A stretch of 26,813 nucleotides of DNA from a virus, in UHGV virus genome UHGV-0083306; one strand, written 5' to 3'. The stretch's first letter is position 1, and the number at the start of each line of letters is the position of its first letter. The notes beneath the pieces were generated by a model. The model searched no databases, was not told the DNA's origin, and was given only the letters and a program-made list of their open reading frames with translations. The position numbers were made by a program, and so were the translations under genes. Shown here one piece after another: positions 11,346-22,062 of this stretch.

Positions 11346-11481
11346 ACGTCCTCCTTTTCCTGCGGTAGTGGTAAAACTCCTGTTGGTGTTCTTTCACACC
11401 GGAGACACCATCGATTCCAGTAAGGTTAATTTGGTCTGAAGCGGTTATCTTCTTTGCATTCACCGCACCGATCACATCGCA

Positions 11482-11903
11482 TCATGCAGCCCGATCTCCC
11501 CATCTCGCTTTCCACTCCAGAGCCAGTCGCGCTTCGTCTGACCACTTAACGCCACGCTCTGTACCGAATGCCTGTATAAGCTCTAATAACTCCGCAAATT
11601 CGCTTACACGCATCCTGCTGGTTGACTGGCCTATTACCACAAGCCATTCCCGGCAAGGTTAGGAACAACGTCCTGCTGCTTTAATGCTGCGGTAAACACA
11701 CACTTCCAGCTTTCTGCATCCAGCCAGCGACCATGCCATTCAACCTGACGAGAGACGTCACCAAGGCAAGCCCAAAGCTTTCGATTCTGGTCTAAGCTGC
11801 GGTTGCGCTGCTTAAACTCGACAATGATGTCTAAATCGCATGTCCTAAGATACTGAATGGCGTTATATCTTATAGATTCATTAGTAAGGTGTATTTGACA
11901 CAT
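11482..11903 (-). pseudogene. ninB: ninB (orf) 3' portion, frameshifted
   Basis: 11903-11634 encodes NinB-like …QRNRSLDQNRKLWACLGDVSRQVEWHGRWLDAESWKCVFTAALKQQDVVPNLAGNG then stops; the rest ([52 protein letters not shown]) continues in the -1 frame from 11640 to a stop at 11482-11484. Confidence 0.65.
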
Positions 11904-16929: not shown

Positions 16930-17208
16930 TTAAGCGTCCAGACTGCTACCAACAGCTGGGCGTTTTTCTTTTGTGAGAATCGATGCCACCTGCTGAGCAA
17001 GTCTCGCCATCTCATCATCAACAACTCCCCATTCAAGAACAGCCAGAAGCATGGCCATCTTTGGGATAAAGCTGTCTTTCCATCGCGAAATTTGCGATTC
17101 ATTAATCCCTAACGCGTCGGCAACCTTTCGCTGACCACGTACAGCAATTCGATTCAGGATGTTGCTTGTAATTGCATTCGCTTTCTTGCGAGTACTTGTA
17201 AGTTGCAT
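16930..17208 (-). CDS. cII: transcriptional activator CII
   Basis: 92-aa ORF; …VADALGINESQISRWKDSFIPKMAMLLAVLEWGVVDDEMARLAQQVASILTKEKRPA closely matches lambda CII; upstream leader matches the lambda cII leader. Confidence 0.85.
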   Translation of the reverse strand: MQLTSTRKKANAITSNILNRIAVRGQRKVADALGINESQISRWKDSFIPKMAMLLAVLEWGVVDDEMARLAQQVASILTKEKRPAVGSSLDA

Positions 17209-17287
17209 ATGTAAGTATTTCCTTAGATAACAATTGATTGAATGTATGCAAATAAATGCATACACCATAGGTGTGGTTTAATTTGAT

Positions 17288-17319
17288 GCCCTTTTTCAGG
17301 GCTGGAATGTGTAAGAGCG
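17288..17319 (-). promoter_or_regulatory. nutR (boxA and boxB)
   Basis: Minus strand reads CGCTCTTACACATTCCAGCCCTGAAAAAGGGC, i.e. lambda boxA plus the nutR boxB hairpin, between cro and cII. Confidence 0.8.
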
Positions 17320-17327
17320 TTGATAAC

Positions 17328-17558
17328 TTAAGCAGCCATTAATTCAGGCCAGATGCTTTCCCAATCAACCGGATGAAGGTCTTTGCGAGTCACTTCACCA
17401 TTGCTGAACTTCTCAATCAGAACACAAAGTGCTGCGCCCAATTCATGATTACGGCTAAGTGCTTTCCTCAAATAGCCGATAGAAGTTCCGCACTTGGTGG
17501 CAAATTCTCTCTGCTCTTCCAGTGAAAGGGAGTTCAGATACAAGCGGAGTTCTTCCAT
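17328..17558 (-). CDS. cro: Cro-like repressor (HTH)
   Basis: 76-aa ORF divergent from the repressor gene, with an HTH-like segment (EEQREFATKCGTSIGYLRKA); not lambda Cro in sequence. Confidence 0.65.
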   Translation of the reverse strand: MEELRLYLNSLSLEEQREFATKCGTSIGYLRKALSRNHELGAALCVLIEKFSNGEVTRKDLHPVDWESIWPELMAA

Positions 17559-17590
17559 TTGCTATCTCCTTCCCGTTGTTGAATAAGGTG

Positions 17591-17660
17591 AGTTTACCTG
17601 CAGGTAAAAAACAAATCAATACCCACAGGTTATTTACCGATAGGTAATCAAAGATAGAAT
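17591..17660. promoter_or_regulatory. right operator/promoter region: OR1-OR3, pR, pRM
   Basis: Operators TTACCTGCAGGTAA (17594-17607), ATACCCACAGGTTA (17619-17632), TTACCGATAGGTAA (17634-17647). pR on minus: -35 TTGATT 17614-17619, -10 TAAACT 17591-17596. pRM on plus: -10 TAGAAT 17655-17660, 6 nt before the cI ATG. Confidence 0.55.
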
Positions 17661-17666
17661 TAAATC

Positions 17667-18353
17667 ATGGATAAATACGAACAAAGACGACTAAGGCTGA
17701 TAGAGATAAGAGACCGATTCTGTAATGGAAAGGCCTCAGAGTTGGCTCGTCGAATAGAAAGGGAACCATCATACGTTTCCAGAATGCTGTATCCGGAAGG
17801 AAAAAGCGGAAAAAAACGCATTGCTGACGATATGATGGAACTAATTGAAAAATCTTTTAATCTCCCACGCGGATGGATGGACATGCTTGCAGATAGCAAA
17901 GTTGGATCTGCAGACCATCTTGAGTTTGCGGGTAACGTTCGTGCGGGTTTTGTTCCGGTAATTGGTGAAGCCGTTTTGGGAGTTGATGGCTCAGTGGATA
18001 TGATTGAATTCAGATCCGGTTGGTTAAGCATCTACAGTGGCGATAAAGATGCTTACGGTCTGAAGGTTAAGGGTGACAGCATGTGGCCAAGGATTCAGTC
18101 AGGAGAATATGTTGTTATTGAACCAAATACGCCAGTACATCCAGGTGATGAAGTCTTTGTAAGGACCAAAGATGGTCATAACATGATAAAGATCATGAAC
18201 AAAACAAGAGACGGAGACTATCAGTTTAGTAGTATAAACAGCGATCACCGTCCAATCACTCTTCCTGTTGAAGAAGTTGATAAAATGCATTTTGTTTCAG
18301 CTATTGTGAAACACACTAGGTACGTAGACCAGGACGATCTGCCAAAATTTTGA
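17667..18353 (+). CDS. cI: CI-like repressor (HTH + S24 LexA-type autopeptidase)
   Basis: 228-aa ORF; N-terminal HTH (ASELARRIEREPSYVSRML), Ala-Gly in the linker (EFAGNV), C-terminal S24 motifs (KVKGDSMWPRI, …MIKIMNK). Immunity specificity is not lambda's. Confidence 0.85.
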   Translation: MDKYEQRRLRLIEIRDRFCNGKASELARRIEREPSYVSRMLYPEGKSGKKRIADDMMELIEKSFNLPRGWMDMLADSKVGSADHLEFAGNVRAGFVPVIGEAVLGVDGSVDMIEFRSGWLSIYSGDKDAYGLKVKGDSMWPRIQSGEYVVIEPNTPVHPGDEVFVRTKDGHNMIKIMNKTRDGDYQFSSINSDHRPITLPVEEVDKMHFVSAIVKHTRYVDQDDLPKF

Positions 18354-18367
18354 GGATAAAGCAGCAA

Positions 18368-18664
18368 ATGTTTATACCAGGTATAGTGGTCGCTGTTGTA
18401 ATCATCTGCTTCATATGGGCAAAGTTATCTCCTGTAAGCTCTAAGCATACAGCTGAACTCATGAAGAAGAAGCATCTTATACATGAGGCAGAAACGATAA
18501 TTAAGAAGTTCAAAGGCATGTCATATGACGACATGTCATCAGATCAGATTGCTATGTATAAATGCGCCATTGAGCGTCTTGACTACTTAAACGGACTCAA
18601 ACCCAAACACACCCCGGTAGAATCAAAATTGCCGCAATGGCCAAGCAATCCAAATAGCTTCTGA
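18368..18664 (+). CDS. small membrane-anchored protein downstream of cI (rex position)
   Basis: 98 aa from ATG 18368 (SD GAGGA); N-terminal hydrophobic helix (MFIPGIVVAVVIICFIWA); same strand as cI and followed by a terminator. Confidence 0.5.
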   Translation: MFIPGIVVAVVIICFIWAKLSPVSSKHTAELMKKKHLIHEAETIIKKFKGMSYDDMSSDQIAMYKCAIERLDYLNGLKPKHTPVESKLPQWPSNPNSF

Positions 18665-18675
18665 CATCTCCTTTC

Positions 18676-18697
18676 AGCCCGCAAAGCGGGCTTTTTT
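18676..18697 (+). terminator. intrinsic terminator ending the cI operon
   Basis: AGCCCGC AAA GCGGGCT followed by TTTTT. Confidence 0.65.
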
Positions 18698-18717
18698 ATA
18701 TCAATCCAAAAAATTAA

Positions 18718-18802
18718 TTACCTGAAAATTCAAACAGGTAAACTCTCACACCAATTTTATTTACCTGCAGGTATAGACAACAGTTTTACCTGTAGGTATA
18801 TT
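18718..18802 (+). promoter_or_regulatory. left operator/promoter region: OL sites and pL
   Basis: TTACCTGCAGGTAT (18761-18774) and TTACCTGTAGGTAT (18786-18799), plus a wider inverted repeat TTACCTG-N10-CAGGTAA (18718-18741). pL: -35 TAGACA 18774-18779, 17-bp spacer, -10 TATATT 18797-18802; transcript then lambda-like (ATCAGCAGGACGCAC…). Confidence 0.55.
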
Positions 18803-18842
18803 TTAAGCCATCAGCAGGACGCACTAACCACCATGAAGGTGA

Positions 18843-18873
18843 GGCTCTTAAAAATTTAGCCCTGAAGAAGGGC
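18843..18873 (+). promoter_or_regulatory. nutL (boxA-like and boxB)
   Basis: GGCTCTTAAAAATTTAGCCCTGAAGAAGGGC: boxA with one mismatch, then the lambda nutL boxB hairpin GCCCTGAAGAAGGGC. Confidence 0.8.
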
Positions 18874-19141
18874 AGCATTCAAAGCAGAAGGCTTTGGGGT
18901 GTGGTGAAGCCAGCTAGTCACTGGCAAGTGCTTACCTACTGTTGAGCGGTGAAGCGCTCCCAACGCTAGCAATAGCGTGGACGAGATGGGGAGCCGCGGG
19001 CGATAAGGCCGCCATAACGCGCACGTTGTCGCATGGAAAAATCACTGGGGTGCCGGTTATACCCCTCCGAATGAGACTCAACAAGCTGGAGCTAGACTAC
19101 CAGCCACCACACCACCAAAGCTAACTGACAGGAGAATCCAG

Positions 19142-19474
19142 ATGGATGCACAAACACGCCGCCGCGAACGTCGCGCAGAGAAACAGGCTCAATGGAAAGC
19201 AGCAAATCCCCTGTTAGTTGGGGTAAGCGCCAAGCCAGACACCCGCAAAATTCTCTCGCTGACTCGAAAGCCTAAATCACGCGTAGAAAGCGCTCTGAAC
19301 CCGATTGATTTAACGGTGCTGGCTGAGTATCGGGAAGAGATGGAAAAACGCGCTGAAGCTGTTGAGCGCAAGAATCATCGCACATGGTACAGCAAGCCAC
19401 GCAGTGAAATGGGGGTGACTTGTGTTGGTCGCCAGAAAATGAAATTAGGCAGTAAGCTACTGTATGAGGGGTGA
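19142..19474 (+). CDS. N: antiterminator N (lambda-type arginine-rich motif)
   Basis: 110-aa ORF; MDAQTRRRERRAEKQAQWKAANPLLVGVSAKP… matches the lambda N N-terminus; C-terminus diverges. Confidence 0.85.
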   Translation: MDAQTRRRERRAEKQAQWKAANPLLVGVSAKPDTRKILSLTRKPKSRVESALNPIDLTVLAEYREEMEKRAEAVERKNHRTWYSKPRSEMGVTCVGRQKMKLGSKLLYEG

Positions 19475-19477
19475 GAT

Positions 19478-19666
19478 ATGCATAAATGTCAGTTCTGTGG
19501 ATACATGTTTGAATCAAATGAAATGCAACGTATTTCGTTAAACCTTATCGGTAGGCCATACAACATTTGCCTAGGATGTAGCGAGAAATACAAAAACAAA
19601 GACATGTGGGACGACAATAAAAACGATATCGACTGGAATAAAGTGCCATGTATTGATGATAGTTAA
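19478..19666 (+). CDS. small zinc-ribbon protein (62 aa)
   Basis: Two CxxC pairs (CQFCG…CLGCS); good SD GAGGGGTGAG; immediately after N. Confidence 0.5.
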   Translation: MHKCQFCGYMFESNEMQRISLNLIGRPYNICLGCSEKYKNKDMWDDNKNDIDWNKVPCIDDS

Positions 19667-19676
19667 AAATAATTAT

Positions 19677-19728
19677 GCCGCATAGTCGGCCTTCTTTTGG
19701 CATAAACAACAGAATAAACACTGCACTG
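19677..19728 (+). repeat. direct repeat copy 1 (hairpin + GGCATAAACAACAGAATAAACAC)
   Basis: About 52 bp nearly identical to 19915-19969; begins with a short GCCG…CGGC hairpin and a T-run. Confidence 0.6.
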
Positions 19729-19746
19729 AATTATTTGAGGTGAAAT

Positions 19747-19914
19747 ATGGAAATTGAAATACCAGACAGCTTCGACCCTGAATGGCAAGCAATGATGCTT
19801 CGCCAGTTAGCTGGGAACATTGAGGCACTTAAAAATCGAGAAGATGAACCTGACGAACTACTTATCGACTGCGAGGAAATTATCGAATCTCTTCGCGAAT
19901 ATTCAGGATTTTAA
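19747..19914 (+). CDS. small acidic ORF (55 aa) flanked by the direct repeats
   Basis: MEIEIPDSFDPEWQAMMLRQLAGNIEALKNREDEPDELLIDCEEIIESLREYSGF; SD GAGGTGA 7 nt upstream; below the ORF-track cutoff. Confidence 0.4.
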   Translation: MEIEIPDSFDPEWQAMMLRQLAGNIEALKNREDEPDELLIDCEEIIESLREYSGF

Positions 19915-19969
19915 GGCCGAATAGTCGGCCTTTATTTTTGGCATAAACAACAGAATAAACACAGCACTG
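19915..19969 (+). repeat. direct repeat copy 2, with terminator-like hairpin
   Basis: GGCCGA ATAG TCGGCC + TTTATTTTTGG, then GCATAAACAACAGAATAAACACAGCACTG; an 8-bp inverted repeat (TGTATTCA…TGAATACA) follows at 19970-19995. Confidence 0.6.
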
Positions 19970-20058
19970 TGTATTCATTCCAACGAGTGAATACACGGAG
20001 CAATGTCGCTCGTAACTAAACAGGAGCCGACTTGTTCTGATTATTGGAAATCTTCTTT

Positions 20059-20084
20059 GCCCTCCGATGTGAGGGCCTTTTTAT
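20059..20084 (+). terminator. intrinsic terminator within the early-left operon
   Basis: GCCCTC CGATGT GAGGGC followed by CTTTTTAT. Confidence 0.6.
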
Positions 20085-20148
20085 ATGCATATCAATAACG
20101 CTTCACTTGAGGCGTTTTCGTTATGCAATCAAACAGAAGGAGCATCCT

Positions 20149-20319
20149 ATGCAACAGTTCGCTATTGCAGGGGCGGCATCGGTTCGCCCTTTCAACCCGA
20201 TTTTATCGGTACAGCATTCACGAAAAAATATTTTAACCGGAGCAGACTTTAAACAACCAAGAATGAAAAGTTTGCTCGAAAAGCTTTGGGATATTTTGAA
20301 ACAACAAGGCCGTCCATGA
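20149..20319 (+). CDS. cIII: CIII-like protein (putative FtsH inhibitor)
   Basis: 56 aa from ATG 20149 (SD AAGGAG, 6-nt spacing): MQQFAIAGAASV…KSLLEKLWDILKQQGRP, resembling lambda CIII (MQYAIAG…ESLLERI…LIDILNQPG). Confidence 0.5.
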   Translation: MQQFAIAGAASVRPFNPILSVQHSRKNILTGADFKQPRMKSLLEKLWDILKQQGRP

Positions 20320-20394
20320 GTTTTACAGATAACTGGTCAGACGAAGAATTCATTCGTCAGATGAAAGAATTAATCGGTAACGAAGGAGATATTC

Positions 20395-20583
20395 ATGTCA
20401 CTTGCAACCACAGTGAAGGAGAGCAAGTTACAGAGGCGCATGTACACGCAGCAGGCGTTAATGTATCGCCAGAAGGGAGATCGTGAAGGTGTTCGCGTAT
20501 TTTTAAATGCGGCAAAGACTGAAGTATTAAATCAGCGTTATTTCCTTGGGCCATGTCCATTCTTAGAACAAACATATGAGTAA
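20395..20583 (+). CDS. small protein coupled to erf (Arf/Kil position)
   Basis: 62-aa ORF with strong SD AAGGAGAT; its 3' end overlaps the erf start by 8 nt. Confidence 0.45.
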   Translation: MSLATTVKESKLQRRMYTQQALMYRQKGDREGVRVFLNAAKTEVLNQRYFLGPCPFLEQTYE

Positions 20584-21181
20584 AGAATTTTACGCAAGAC
20601 TGGCAGCTATTCAGGAGAATCTGAACGCGCCAAAGAATCAGTACAACTCATTCGGTAAATATAAATACAGAAGCTGCGAAGACATTCTTGAAGGCGTTAA
20701 GCCGTTACTGAATGGTCTGTTTTTATCAATCAGCGATGAAGTTGTGTTGATTGGTGATCGGTATTACGTGAAAGCCACGGCAACTATTACTGATGGCGAA
20801 AACAGTCATACGGCAACCGCTCTTGCACGAGAGGAAGAAAGCAAGAAAGGAATGGATTCTGCACAAGTTACGGGAGCTACAAGCTCTTATGCACGCAAGT
20901 ATTGCCTCAATGGTTTGTTCGGCATTGATGATGCGAAAGATGCAGATACAGACGAGCATAAACATCAGCAGAACGCAGTAGCAAAGCAATCAAAACCATC
21001 ACCTACACCTGAACAGGTTCTAAAAGCATTCACTGACGCAGCAATGCAGAAAAACACCGTGGAAGAGCTTAAACAGGCGTTCGCCAAAGCGTGGAAGATG
21101 CTCGAAGGCACACCGGAGCAGCACAAAGCGCAGGACGTTTACAACATCAGACGAGACGAATTAGAAGGAGCGGCTGCTTAA
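20576..21181 (+). CDS. erf: Erf single-strand annealing recombinase (P22 Erf-like)
   Basis: 201-aa ORF; MSKEFYARLAAIQENLNAPKNQYNSFGKYKYRSCEDILEGVKPLL… matches remembered P22 Erf. Confidence 0.85.
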   Translation: MSKEFYARLAAIQENLNAPKNQYNSFGKYKYRSCEDILEGVKPLLNGLFLSISDEVVLIGDRYYVKATATITDGENSHTATALAREEESKKGMDSAQVTGATSSYARKYCLNGLFGIDDAKDADTDEHKHQQNAVAKQSKPSPTPEQVLKAFTDAAMQKNTVEELKQAFAKAWKMLEGTPEQHKAQDVYNIRRDELEGAAA

Positions 21182-21564
21182 TGGCACATTCGATTACTGT
21201 AAGACTAAACAAGCCCGCAAGAGAGTTTCAGGCCGGGGAAAATATCGGATTCAACATCCGTGCTGGCGTTCAGTATTACGATCGCCAGACAAAAAAGAAA
21301 GAATGGACAAACTACAGCGCCGTTGTATTTGCCAAGCCGGGAGCGCAAGCGGATTACTACCGTAGCGTTCTGGATGAAGGAGGCATTGTGGAAATTACCG
21401 GAGAAAACATCAGGGTTGATGTTTATCAGGGGCAAAATGGTCAATCAATCACTCTTGAATTACTGAATGCAAAGATTGGATTTGCAGCTTCAGGAAATGG
21501 CCCGCAGCAGCAAAGTAGTAACCAGCAGAACACTCCTGTATACGACGATTCCATCCCATTCTGA
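21181..21564 (+). CDS. SSB-like protein with C-terminal DDSIPF tail
   Basis: 127 aa from ATG 21181 (SD AGGAG; overlaps erf stop TAATG); Gly/Gln-rich linker ending …YDDSIPF, like the SSB acidic tip DDDIPF. Confidence 0.6.
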   Translation: MAHSITVRLNKPAREFQAGENIGFNIRAGVQYYDRQTKKKEWTNYSAVVFAKPGAQADYYRSVLDEGGIVEITGENIRVDVYQGQNGQSITLELLNAKIGFAASGNGPQQQSSNQQNTPVYDDSIPF

Positions 21565-21587
21565 TTCAGAAAAATAAGGATTTAATC

Positions 21588-21884
21588 ATGCCAGCGCCTC
21601 AGTATGGTGCGGATGACCCGCGCCGCTGTTCCGGCAATTCCGTATCGGAGGTGCTGGATAAATTCAGAAAAAACTACGACCTGATAATGTCGCTACCGCA
21701 GGAAACGAAAGAGGAAAAGGAATTTCGCCATTGTATATGGCTTGCAGAGAAAGAAGAACGAGAGCGAATTTACCAGACATCAATCCGACCATTCCGTAAA
21801 GCCACATATACCCACTTCCCTGAATATATCGACCCGCGCCTGCGTAATTACCGCTCACGCTATGGCGCTATCAGTAATGACTGA
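21588..21884 (+). CDS. hypothetical protein (98 aa), possible Abc2-like anti-RecBCD
   Basis: Size and position after erf/ssb fit P22 Abc2; not confirmed by sequence recall. Confidence 0.35.
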
Positions 21885-21894
21885 GGAATTTACC

Positions 21895-22062
21895 ATGAGA
21901 GGACTTGCATACAATCCCGGCATTCTTCCGGCAGAAATGATTATTCGCCAACGCGTAAAGCCAATGCCATCGAGAGAGGAATTGCTTAAGAGAAATAGTT
22001 TCGGTTCTGTTAATGACAACAAATATCTGAATGCGATGTGGCGCAAAGGAGGCAACCAGTGA
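21895..22062 (+). CDS. small hypothetical protein (55 aa)
   Basis: ATG 21895 preceded by SD GAGGAA; in frame with the longer track ORF 21742-22062, which overlaps the upstream gene. Confidence 0.35.

Follow-up and report, generated by a model that had tools for sequence, protein, structure and literature searches.

According to the modular theory that Susskind and Botstein reportedly put forward, conserved boundary ('linker') sequences lie at the junctions of lambdoid modules, and later surveys are said to have found gene-boundary mosaicism in the HK97/HK022 and HK620 genomes. Hendrix, Juhala and colleagues are likewise said to have described morons, extra genes with their own promoter and terminator that sit between conserved phage genes. 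Here we consider a pair of near-identical repeat units, A and B, that flank a small open reading frame (ORF), ORF55, in the lambdoid early-left (pL) operon of the virus genome UHGV-0083306; the stretch analysed, 26,813 nucleotides of one strand to which all window coordinates refer, is called the window. Besides linkers and morons, the systems closest to this arrangement are the pL terminators of lambda (tL1, the tL2a-d cluster and tL3), through which N allows reading, and the lambda locus of the Hfq-dependent small RNA (sRNA) LPR1/PreS, which lies between ral and ea10, is ~88 nt long, is processed to ~68 nt and has the terminator tL2a as its 3' end (bioRxiv 10.1101/2024.10.31.621285). Homeologous recombination by Red-beta/Erf-type recombinases has also been described (PMC2327257, PMC3945230), and the minimal pairing segment amounts to 23-27 bp for Red-beta and 31-34 bp for RecA (PMC3945230). 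We consider it probable that the two units are copies of a gene-end module of the lambdoid N-to-cIII region, that their arrangement is recombinant, and that the module is a locus-specific mosaic joint which doubles as an N-suppressible terminator.

The operon runs on the + strand in the order nutL, N, zinc (Zn)-ribbon gene, unit A, ORF55, unit B, a 14-bp hairpin, a PreS homolog and cIII. The parts with which we are mainly concerned are the following.

19677-19728, + strand: unit A, made of a degenerate hairpin, a T-run, an A-rich core and a tail
19677-19690, + strand: unit A hairpin, GCCG-CATAGT-CGGC, degenerate
19691-19698, + strand: unit A T-run, CTTCTTTT
19699-19721, + strand: unit A A-rich core, GGCATAAACAACAGAATAAACAC
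19722-19728, + strand: unit A tail, TGCACTG
19731-19746, + strand: shared translation-initiation flank, TTATTTGAGGTGAAAT, with the Shine-Dalgarno sequence GAGGTGA at 19737-19743
19747-19914, + strand: ORF55, small acidic accessory protein and cassette cargo (phrog_7393, E = 5e-24)
19913-19969, + strand: unit B including its full hairpin, made of an intact hairpin, T-run, core and tail; probable intrinsic terminator
19913-19932, + strand: unit B hairpin, 8 bp
19931-19939, + strand: unit B T-run, TTTATTTTT, whose first two T are stem bases
19940-19962, + strand: unit B core
19963-19969, + strand: unit B tail, AGCACTG

The ~52-bp direct repeats that a first-pass annotation had claimed from the sequence are real. 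Sequence reading of 19200-20500 and a repeat finder delimit them as 19677-19728 and 19916-19969; they lie in direct orientation, spaced 241 nt, and are 91% identical, with 49 of 54 columns of a pairwise alignment in agreement; of the five that disagree, three are substitutions and two belong to a gap in the T-run. The longest exact run common to both measures 27 nt (19695-19721 and 19936-19962). Two exact occurrences of the 23-mer GGCATAAACAACAGAATAAACAC, and no more, are present in the window (26.8 kb), and none of 100 dinucleotide-preserving shuffles contained a match to it, even at up to three mismatches; a short chance similarity is thereby set aside. The units also lie where that annotation had put them, after the Zn-ribbon gene and after the 55-aa ORF: unit A starts 10 nt past the stop of the 62-aa Zn-ribbon ORF (19478-19666), and the hairpin of unit B overlaps the stop codon of ORF55. 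Each repeat extends through its tail, [T/A]GCACTG, which in unit B forms the 5' base of the 14-bp hairpin. The small acidic ORF between them is a real gene with a predicted product of 55 aa and a pI of 4.05 (16 acidic and 4 basic residues).

Unit B and the DNA that follows it have a counterpart in lambda. Positions 19921-20086 of the window are 95% identical to lambda 34087 (the ral stop codon) to 33923, just before ea10, and by this alignment unit B, the inverted repeat and the next 88 nt correspond to the lambda ral-ea10 intergenic region, which holds the PreS/LPR1 sRNA. The elements downstream of unit B are these.

19967-19980 / 19985-19998, + strand: perfect 14-bp hairpin with the 4-nt loop CAAC, abutting the 5' end of the PreS homolog
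19998-20085, + strand: PreS (LPR1) sRNA homolog, unannotated, 83 of 88 nt identical to lambda 34011-33924
20059-20076, + strand: PreS terminator hairpin, corresponding to tL2a (terminator scan)

The ends of PreS were set from the supplement primers P810, P1103, P1104 and P969 (GAGCAATGTCGCTCG... and ...GAGGGCGATTTTTTA; bioRxiv 10.1101/2024.10.31.621285), and the span that they define is exactly 88 nt in lambda (34011-33924). Only the terminator hairpin (loop and stem base) and the U-run tail differ between the homolog and lambda, and the seed is identical. What had been noted as an 8-bp inverted repeat after the second copy is actually a perfect 14-bp stem with a 4-nt loop; its 58-nt context folds at -23 kcal/mol (z = -5.8). 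Unit B, this hairpin and the 88-nt sRNA with its terminator are thus collinear with lambda 34087-33923 at ~95% identity, and in lambda the module lies between the ral stop codon and the hairpin preceding PreS. The repeat units are outside (5' of) the sRNA and not part of it, and the lambda flank that contains the unit is left intact in the full lpr1 deletion design (bioRxiv 10.1101/2024.10.31.621285).

At this one position the unit joins a variety of unrelated genes. A BLAST search of unit B against 50,697 phage records returned 140 records and 140 places, one copy per genome and always in the N-to-PreS region; an exact-pattern scan of IMG/VR with the 23-mer gave at least 120 loci, and all fetched copies fall in the N-to-PreS interval. 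DNA clustering of the 300 nt upstream of the hairpin in 117 copies yielded 14 sequence clusters with ~12 distinct gene ends, and the genes that end at the unit include ral, a 149-aa membrane-like protein gene, the Zn-ribbon gene, ORF156 and ORF55. On the downstream side, the fetched loci show five continuations. The majority run into the PreS hairpin; three classes continue after GCACTG with AATTATTTGAGGTGA[A/G]ATATG and then ORF156, ORF149 or ORF55; and in the fifth, ..AACAGA is followed by GGTG[G/A]ATATG and a two-gene cassette (MKEFKG...). The core is present in 404 of 5426 complete E. coli genomes, in most of which homology to the window ends exactly between 19728 and 19729, and 48 of the genomes with the core continue into a cassette junction of the ribosome-binding-site (RBS) type. 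Breakpoints coincide with the unit, and its neighbours are unrelated. The breakpoints fall at its left edge (19911-19936), inside it or at its right edge (19952-19964), and between 19728 and 19729. The idea that the repeats are recombination linkers is accordingly borne out in one sense, as the unit is a mosaic junction with ~12-14 upstream ends, five continuations and matching breakpoints, but not in the sense of a general linker at module boundaries, because it occupies a single locus in the 140 phage records. A dispersed repeat of the REP/MITE kind was rejected on the same ground of a single locus per phage genome.

The comparison with lambdoid linkers is mixed in the same manner. Like a linker, the unit is a short sequence conserved between unrelated neighbour genes, with breakpoints at or within it and alternative gene contents beside it, and the window phage encodes a Rad52-like annealing protein (Erf). 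Unlike a linker, it keeps to a single locus, between N and cIII and upstream of PreS, instead of being spread over many boundaries, it occurs twice in this genome, which is a rarity, and several junctions of the slot share no more than 2-6 nt, so that not all exchange can be homology-driven. Two units in one genome were seen in none of the 140 phage records and in 2 of 120 IMG/VR loci among the matches listed. One of the latter, L099 (~11399-11667, both strands), contains N bases and a partly repeated 5' end of ORF156; it is probably a scaffolding artefact and is not used as evidence here. A second recurrent joint was also observed: CGAATAAGCACTG, which equals the unit tail minus ACAC[T/A], lies just upstream of the PreS hairpin in L043-type and many L126-L211 loci, where five or more unrelated genes have it as their 3' junction, some of them with its TAA as stop codon.

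The stretch from the Zn-ribbon stop to the PreS 5' end can be regarded as a slot, which has six alleles among Zn-ribbon-carrying loci.

Phage Louie, 92 nt: empty slot with a single unit
This window, 331 nt: ORF55
mEp213, 523 nt: genes of 92 aa and 53 aa
E. coli ECONIH5, 566 nt: genes of 95 aa and 62 aa
L053 and L095, 594 nt: ORF156
L071, 1120 nt: ORF149 and ORF156, with two full units flanking/separating them

The first unit lies at one constant offset past the Zn-ribbon stop in all six, and L071 provides a second example of a unit-flanked gene. These alleles agree with the cassette picture of the first-pass annotation: in Louie, the Zn-ribbon gene is followed by one unit and then by the downstream sequence seen here, no ORF intervening, and next to this empty state there are five other fillings of the slot.

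Close relatives of the window differ from one side of ORF55 to the other, and this allows both crossovers to be placed. On the left, 19440-19749 is 99.7% identical to L053 (Zn-ribbon gene, unit, RBS and ORF156), and the homology stops at the ATG; unit A and its upstream flank are identical in loci with Zn-ribbon gene, unit and ORF156 (L053, L108). L095 matches both flanks (19116-19749 and 19963-21206) with ORF156 replacing ORF55. The central part, 19731-19954, is 99.6% identical to E. coli 873.10, in which ORF55 stands behind a different gene with no unit upstream and is followed by the hairpin, a truncated unit and a two-gene cassette, and 19916-20082 is 97.6% identical to Louie. Overlap of these homologies confines the left crossover to 19731-19743 (TTATTTGAGGTGA), a 13-bp shared ribosome-binding site, and the right crossover to 19916-19954, 39 bp that comprise the hairpin, the T-run and the first 15 nt of the core. 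The view that the repeat is the site of both exchanges does not hold, since the left crossover lies in the shared ribosome-binding site, outside the repeat. This site has a history of its own: the RBS flank of ORF55, TTATTTGAGGTGAAATATG, consists of the 3' end of the N gene (..PLI-stop; ..CCA CTT ATT TGA) and a downstream Shine-Dalgarno sequence. ORF55 directly follows N in the metagenomic contig L216 (230-250; ...CCA CTT ATT TGA GGTGAAATATG), an N 3'-end remnant of ~20 nt forms its 5' flank in L220 (200-226) and 873.10, an N 3'-end remnant is also present in L125 (2990-3016), and ORF156 and ORF149 share the same N-derived flank.

How might the unit act on the pL transcript? The setting is given by the operon around it.

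17667-18353: CI-like repressor gene
~18764-18802: pL-like promoter with operator-like palindromes, upstream of nutL
18859-18873, + strand: nutL boxB, GCCCTGAAGAAGGGC, with a boxA-like GGCTCTTAA just before it
19142-19474, + strand: ORF of the N antiterminator gene, 110 aa, 83% DNA identity to lambda N
19478-19666, + strand: Zn-ribbon-like accessory gene, 62 aa (phrog_19863, E = 5.6e-47)
20097-20116, + strand: terminator-like hairpin upstream of cIII, -9.9 kcal/mol
20149-20319, + strand: cIII-like gene, 56 aa (phrog_550 'CIII anti-termination', E = 1e-22), the downstream anchor of the conserved block

The N gene lies on the + strand and thereby sets the direction of pL transcription through the repeats; its homologs in related records are annotated 'antitermination protein N', and the Zn-ribbon gene is annotated as a coding sequence in Louie and mEp213. 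The boxB GCCCTGAAGAAGGGC matches that of lambda nutL; the promoter/hairpin scan reported the boxB hairpin on the minus strand. Recombination genes, including one for an Erf-type protein, lie beyond cIII, and the neighbours of the slot are N, cIII, erf and ssb. Two side observations concern this operon. In mEp213 (L217), two different N genes are annotated in tandem in the leftward operon (943-1275 and 2428-2700), the second being HK620-like and downstream of the PreS region. An Rfam match to AaHKsRNA82 at 18668-18758 (+), outside the units, was rejected with 29 bits against a gathering threshold of 51 bits (E = 0.15); it overlaps a strong terminator (18676-18692) after a 104-aa ORF beside the repressor gene and is probably a chance match driven by that terminator.

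The two units differ in the quality of their hairpins. That of unit B, found by the terminator scan, has an 8-bp stem with five G-C pairs and a predicted energy of -12.5 kcal/mol and runs into the T-run TTTATTTTT, whereas that of unit A has only the 4-bp stem GCCG/CGGC (-5.0 kcal/mol), was not reported by the terminator scan of the window, and shuffled versions of its 71-nt context fold about as well (z = -0.55). Unit B thus has the GC-rich stem of at least 5-6 bp expected of a terminator and unit A lacks it, although a U-rich tract follows on the + strand in both (TTTATTTTT and CTTCTTTT); on the minus strand, sequence reading and the terminator scan showed no T-run after the repeat hairpin. 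Structure prediction therefore upholds the annotated pair of terminator-like hairpins for unit B and not for unit A. Unit B is a probable intrinsic terminator that N could suppress: given a lambda-type nutL boxB and an N gene in the operon, terminators such as this one would be N-suppressible. The proposed N-dependent terminators hence fit copy B, while copy A is degenerate, as is lambda's own copy (-4.3 kcal/mol), and a terminator function of the unit is evidently dispensable.

Across phages, the position before the A-rich core is occupied by three hairpin sequence types, type 1 (AGGCCGCATAGTCGGCCT, -9.7 kcal/mol), type 2 (AAGGCTGCCTGATGGTGGCCTT, -13.9 kcal/mol) and a third (CCGCTCAGGCGG), each followed by a T-run. 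Variants of type 2 have G-U pairs turned into A-U or G-C pairs, one variant (L198) is double-compensated, and a few copies of the unit are without any hairpin. The stop codon lies inside the hairpin for several upstream genes. As a related observation, the hairpin arm and loop (GCC GCA TAG / GCT GCC TGA) supply the terminal ..Ala-Ala-stop of several unrelated genes before the unit, ral being one of them; the IMG/VR loci L005, L007, L054, L082 and L041 are among the examples. Compared with the lambda pL terminators, the unit is alike in being a GC-rich hairpin with U-run on the pL strand, downstream of nutL and N and at the end of an accessory gene, and the neighbouring hairpin at 20059-20076 is the tL2a/PreS terminator itself. 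It is unlike them in that the unit hairpin of lambda stands just after the ral stop, whereas tL2a is the sRNA's own terminator further downstream (bioRxiv 10.1101/2024.10.31.621285), and in that the copies in lambda and in unit A are degenerate.

We envision a scenario whereby the module, a terminator-type hairpin, a U-run and the A-rich spacer GGCAUAAACAACAGAAUAAACAC[U/A]GCACUG, is present twice here because two stacked accessory genes, the Zn-ribbon gene and ORF55, would each have brought or kept it at the 3' end. The left part (N, Zn-ribbon gene, unit A and RBS) may derive from an L053/L095-like phage that has ORF156 as its slot gene; a phage resembling that of E. coli 873.10 or L216 may have supplied ORF55 together with the beginning of unit B; and the right part (unit B, PreS and cIII) would be common lambda-type sequence. 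On the pL transcript, the hairpin and U-run of unit B might act as an intrinsic terminator or 3'-end stabiliser that stops N-unmodified polymerase after ORF55, in the role of lambda tL1, and polymerase would read through once N acts at nutL. Unit A would be too weak to terminate, and the Zn-ribbon gene and ORF55 would then be co-transcribed with N in the N-independent immediate-early transcript. Conceivably, the module serves in addition as a passive homology patch, as might the shared RBS and the GCACTG or GAATAA-GCACTG tail, on which host or phage recombinases (the phage encodes Erf) could swap, add and delete accessory genes. Recombination across the 27-bp identity might also remove ORF55 and leave a Louie-like empty slot; because 27 bp is at the minimum for Red-beta and below that for RecA, such loss is possible but should be infrequent.

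Several observations count against this scenario. The exact arrangement of the window gave no match in phage records, complete E. coli genomes, GTDB representative genomes or JGI metagenomes (0 matches), and it is for this reason that we infer the direction of the event, gain or replacement; the exact pattern of the left junction likewise gave 0 matches in GTDB representative genomes and 0 in JGI metagenomes. At some slot junctions the unit is broken, either past ..AACAGA or at GAATAA-GCACTG, and only 2-6 nt are held in common, such as the 'CACT' found in both GCACTG and the N 3' end; junctions of this kind fit illegitimate recombination followed by selection as well as they fit homologous exchange, and the former must contribute. 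The hairpin has decayed in many copies: the lambda type (-4.3 kcal/mol, 26 copies) and the Zn-ribbon type, to which unit A belongs, are both affected, and some variants carry mismatches in the stem (GGTCG/CGTCC), so selection for a terminator would be weak or lineage-specific. Finally, 52 of 119 usable loci, sampled on PreS and not on the unit, are without a full unit directly upstream of PreS, and the A-rich core may simply hitch-hike.

Might the unit instead be a functional RNA element, that is, a processing or Hfq-loading signal for the PreS precursor or a sRNA derived from a 3' untranslated region (terminator hairpin, U-run and ARN-like A-rich tract), so that the phage gains a second copy of it by the duplication and recombination is incidental? 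We regard this alternative as unlikely. In its favour, the core is well conserved beside PreS and its 5' hairpin, being complete in 67 of the 119 PreS-anchored loci and present as a short variant in 10 more, and GCACUG, the tail of the unit, takes part in the pairing at the foot of the 14-bp stem. The sequence AACAACAGAAUAAAC resembles the (A-R-N)n motifs bound by the distal face of Hfq. PreS is Hfq-bound, and since the promoter scan of the window found no PreS promoter, the sRNA is probably processed from the pL transcript. Yet 34 of the PreS-anchored loci have only a 12-nt GAATAA-GCAC remnant and 8 have other sequence; that these 42 of 119 loci do without the core beside PreS speaks against its being essential for production of the sRNA. 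Unit A lies apart from PreS and is followed by a ribosome-binding site, the hairpin is decayed in lambda, and an Rfam scan of 17000-22000 at E <= 1 gave no match in the units and, barring the one unrelated weak match mentioned above, none elsewhere in that interval. Moreover, the Hfq peak and chimeras are reported on LPR1 itself, and the flank with the unit is kept in the deletion mutant (bioRxiv 10.1101/2024.10.31.621285).

The neighbouring 14-bp hairpin is kept in 112 of the 119 loci, and the other 7 have an unrelated 11-bp hairpin in its place. The replacement hairpin, AUAGCAGAUUU/GAGUCUGCUAU, has the same flanks (GC.C ... G.GC) and is found in L129, L158, L169, L203 and L206. Such an exchange of one hairpin for another suggests that a 5' hairpin is functionally required, for instance for processing or protection of the PreS precursor. 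A link to the Pas sRNAs was checked and dropped, as those are located elsewhere, near Q. One might go further and suppose that the unit itself is a selected cis-element, either a homology docking site through which a hypervariable, possibly anti-defence slot right before PreS stays open to exchange, or an Hfq/RNase signal for processing of the PreS precursor and of upstream mRNAs. We think this unlikely; if true, stacked copies as in the window would create extra processing or termination points.

ORF55 has relatives enough to be judged as a gene in its own right. Its homologs form 18 clusters with 71-100% identity from prophages of E. coli, Salmonella, Kluyvera and Leclercia. They always belong to an early-left operon, and their stop codon runs straight into a hairpin whose sequence differs from genus to genus, with a T-run in Salmonella and without one in Leclercia. 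As a cassette, its DNA had no match in the phage collection and one in 5426 E. coli genomes (873.10, in a different context); the protein search of phage records returned Salmonella phage TS6 only (43% identity). An AlphaFold2 model predicts a two-helix hairpin (mean pLDDT 74), for which Foldseek against BFVD gave nothing better than E = 1.7, and a Pfam search of six slot proteins, including ORF55 and the Zn-ribbon protein, found no families. In the metagenomic contig L220 (227-445), the ORF55 stop TAA is changed to TCA, and a 72-aa product reads through the hairpin and the unit. By analogy, the position of ORF55, which is that of lambda ral, suggests an anti-defence or exclusion role.

Could ORF55 together with unit B be a classical moron, with its own promoter and terminator and expressed in the prophage? 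It resembles one in being a small accessory gene whose two neighbours adjoin each other in a relative, Louie, and in having a terminator immediately behind it. Nevertheless, no sigma-70-like promoter was detected in 19666-19747 by the scan, nor in 19677-19746 by inspection; ORF55 is co-oriented with pL, and with only the ribosome-binding site inherited from the N 3' end it is a member of the pL operon. As an inserted gene with its own terminator but not its own promoter, it was rejected as a moron, and we hold this identity to be quite improbable.

A recent duplication in situ, by slippage or unequal crossing-over and without exchange between phages, might be suggested by two direct copies 241 nt apart that are 91% identical, yet it is very hard to reconcile with the data. 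The intervening DNA shows no relationship to what lies upstream, only ~52 bp are repeated, and the copies differ by three substitutions and an indel. Loci of the L053 type match copy A and its flank without a difference, and 873.10, which has no upstream copy, matches copy B and ORF55 at 99.6% identity. Because the nearest counterparts of each unit are found in other phages and not in its partner, such a duplication is effectively excluded. A dedicated site-specific cassette system (integron attC-like, or a mini-element with terminal repeats), to which an ORF between direct repeats with an imperfect palindrome and a slot with alternative cassettes might point, is extremely unlikely and was rejected. 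The breakpoints vary (19713/19954, 19728, 19749, 19916-19927, 19962), and one of the junctions falls beyond the repeat, within the ribosome-binding site. Furthermore, the genes beside the slot include no recombinase, phage genomes carry the unit at one place, this locus, and neither terminal inverted repeats nor target-site duplications are present.

We thus return to the probable reading of the units as a recombinant pair of gene-end modules. The arrangement is ordinary phage mosaicism in a well-resolved example and reveals no new mechanism. It offers a base-pair-resolved example of accessory-gene swapping in lambdoid early operons, with six alleles and with crossovers in a 13-bp RBS and a 39-bp terminator/spacer. 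The slot lies beside the recently described PreS and is therefore relevant to the making of the sRNA precursor and to the annotation of PreS in prophages. It also brings together several uncharacterised genes that stand where lambda has its anti-restriction gene ral, namely ORF55, the Zn-ribbon protein gene, ORF149, ORF156 and the MKEFKG.. pair, and this location makes them reasonable candidates to screen for anti-defence or exclusion functions.

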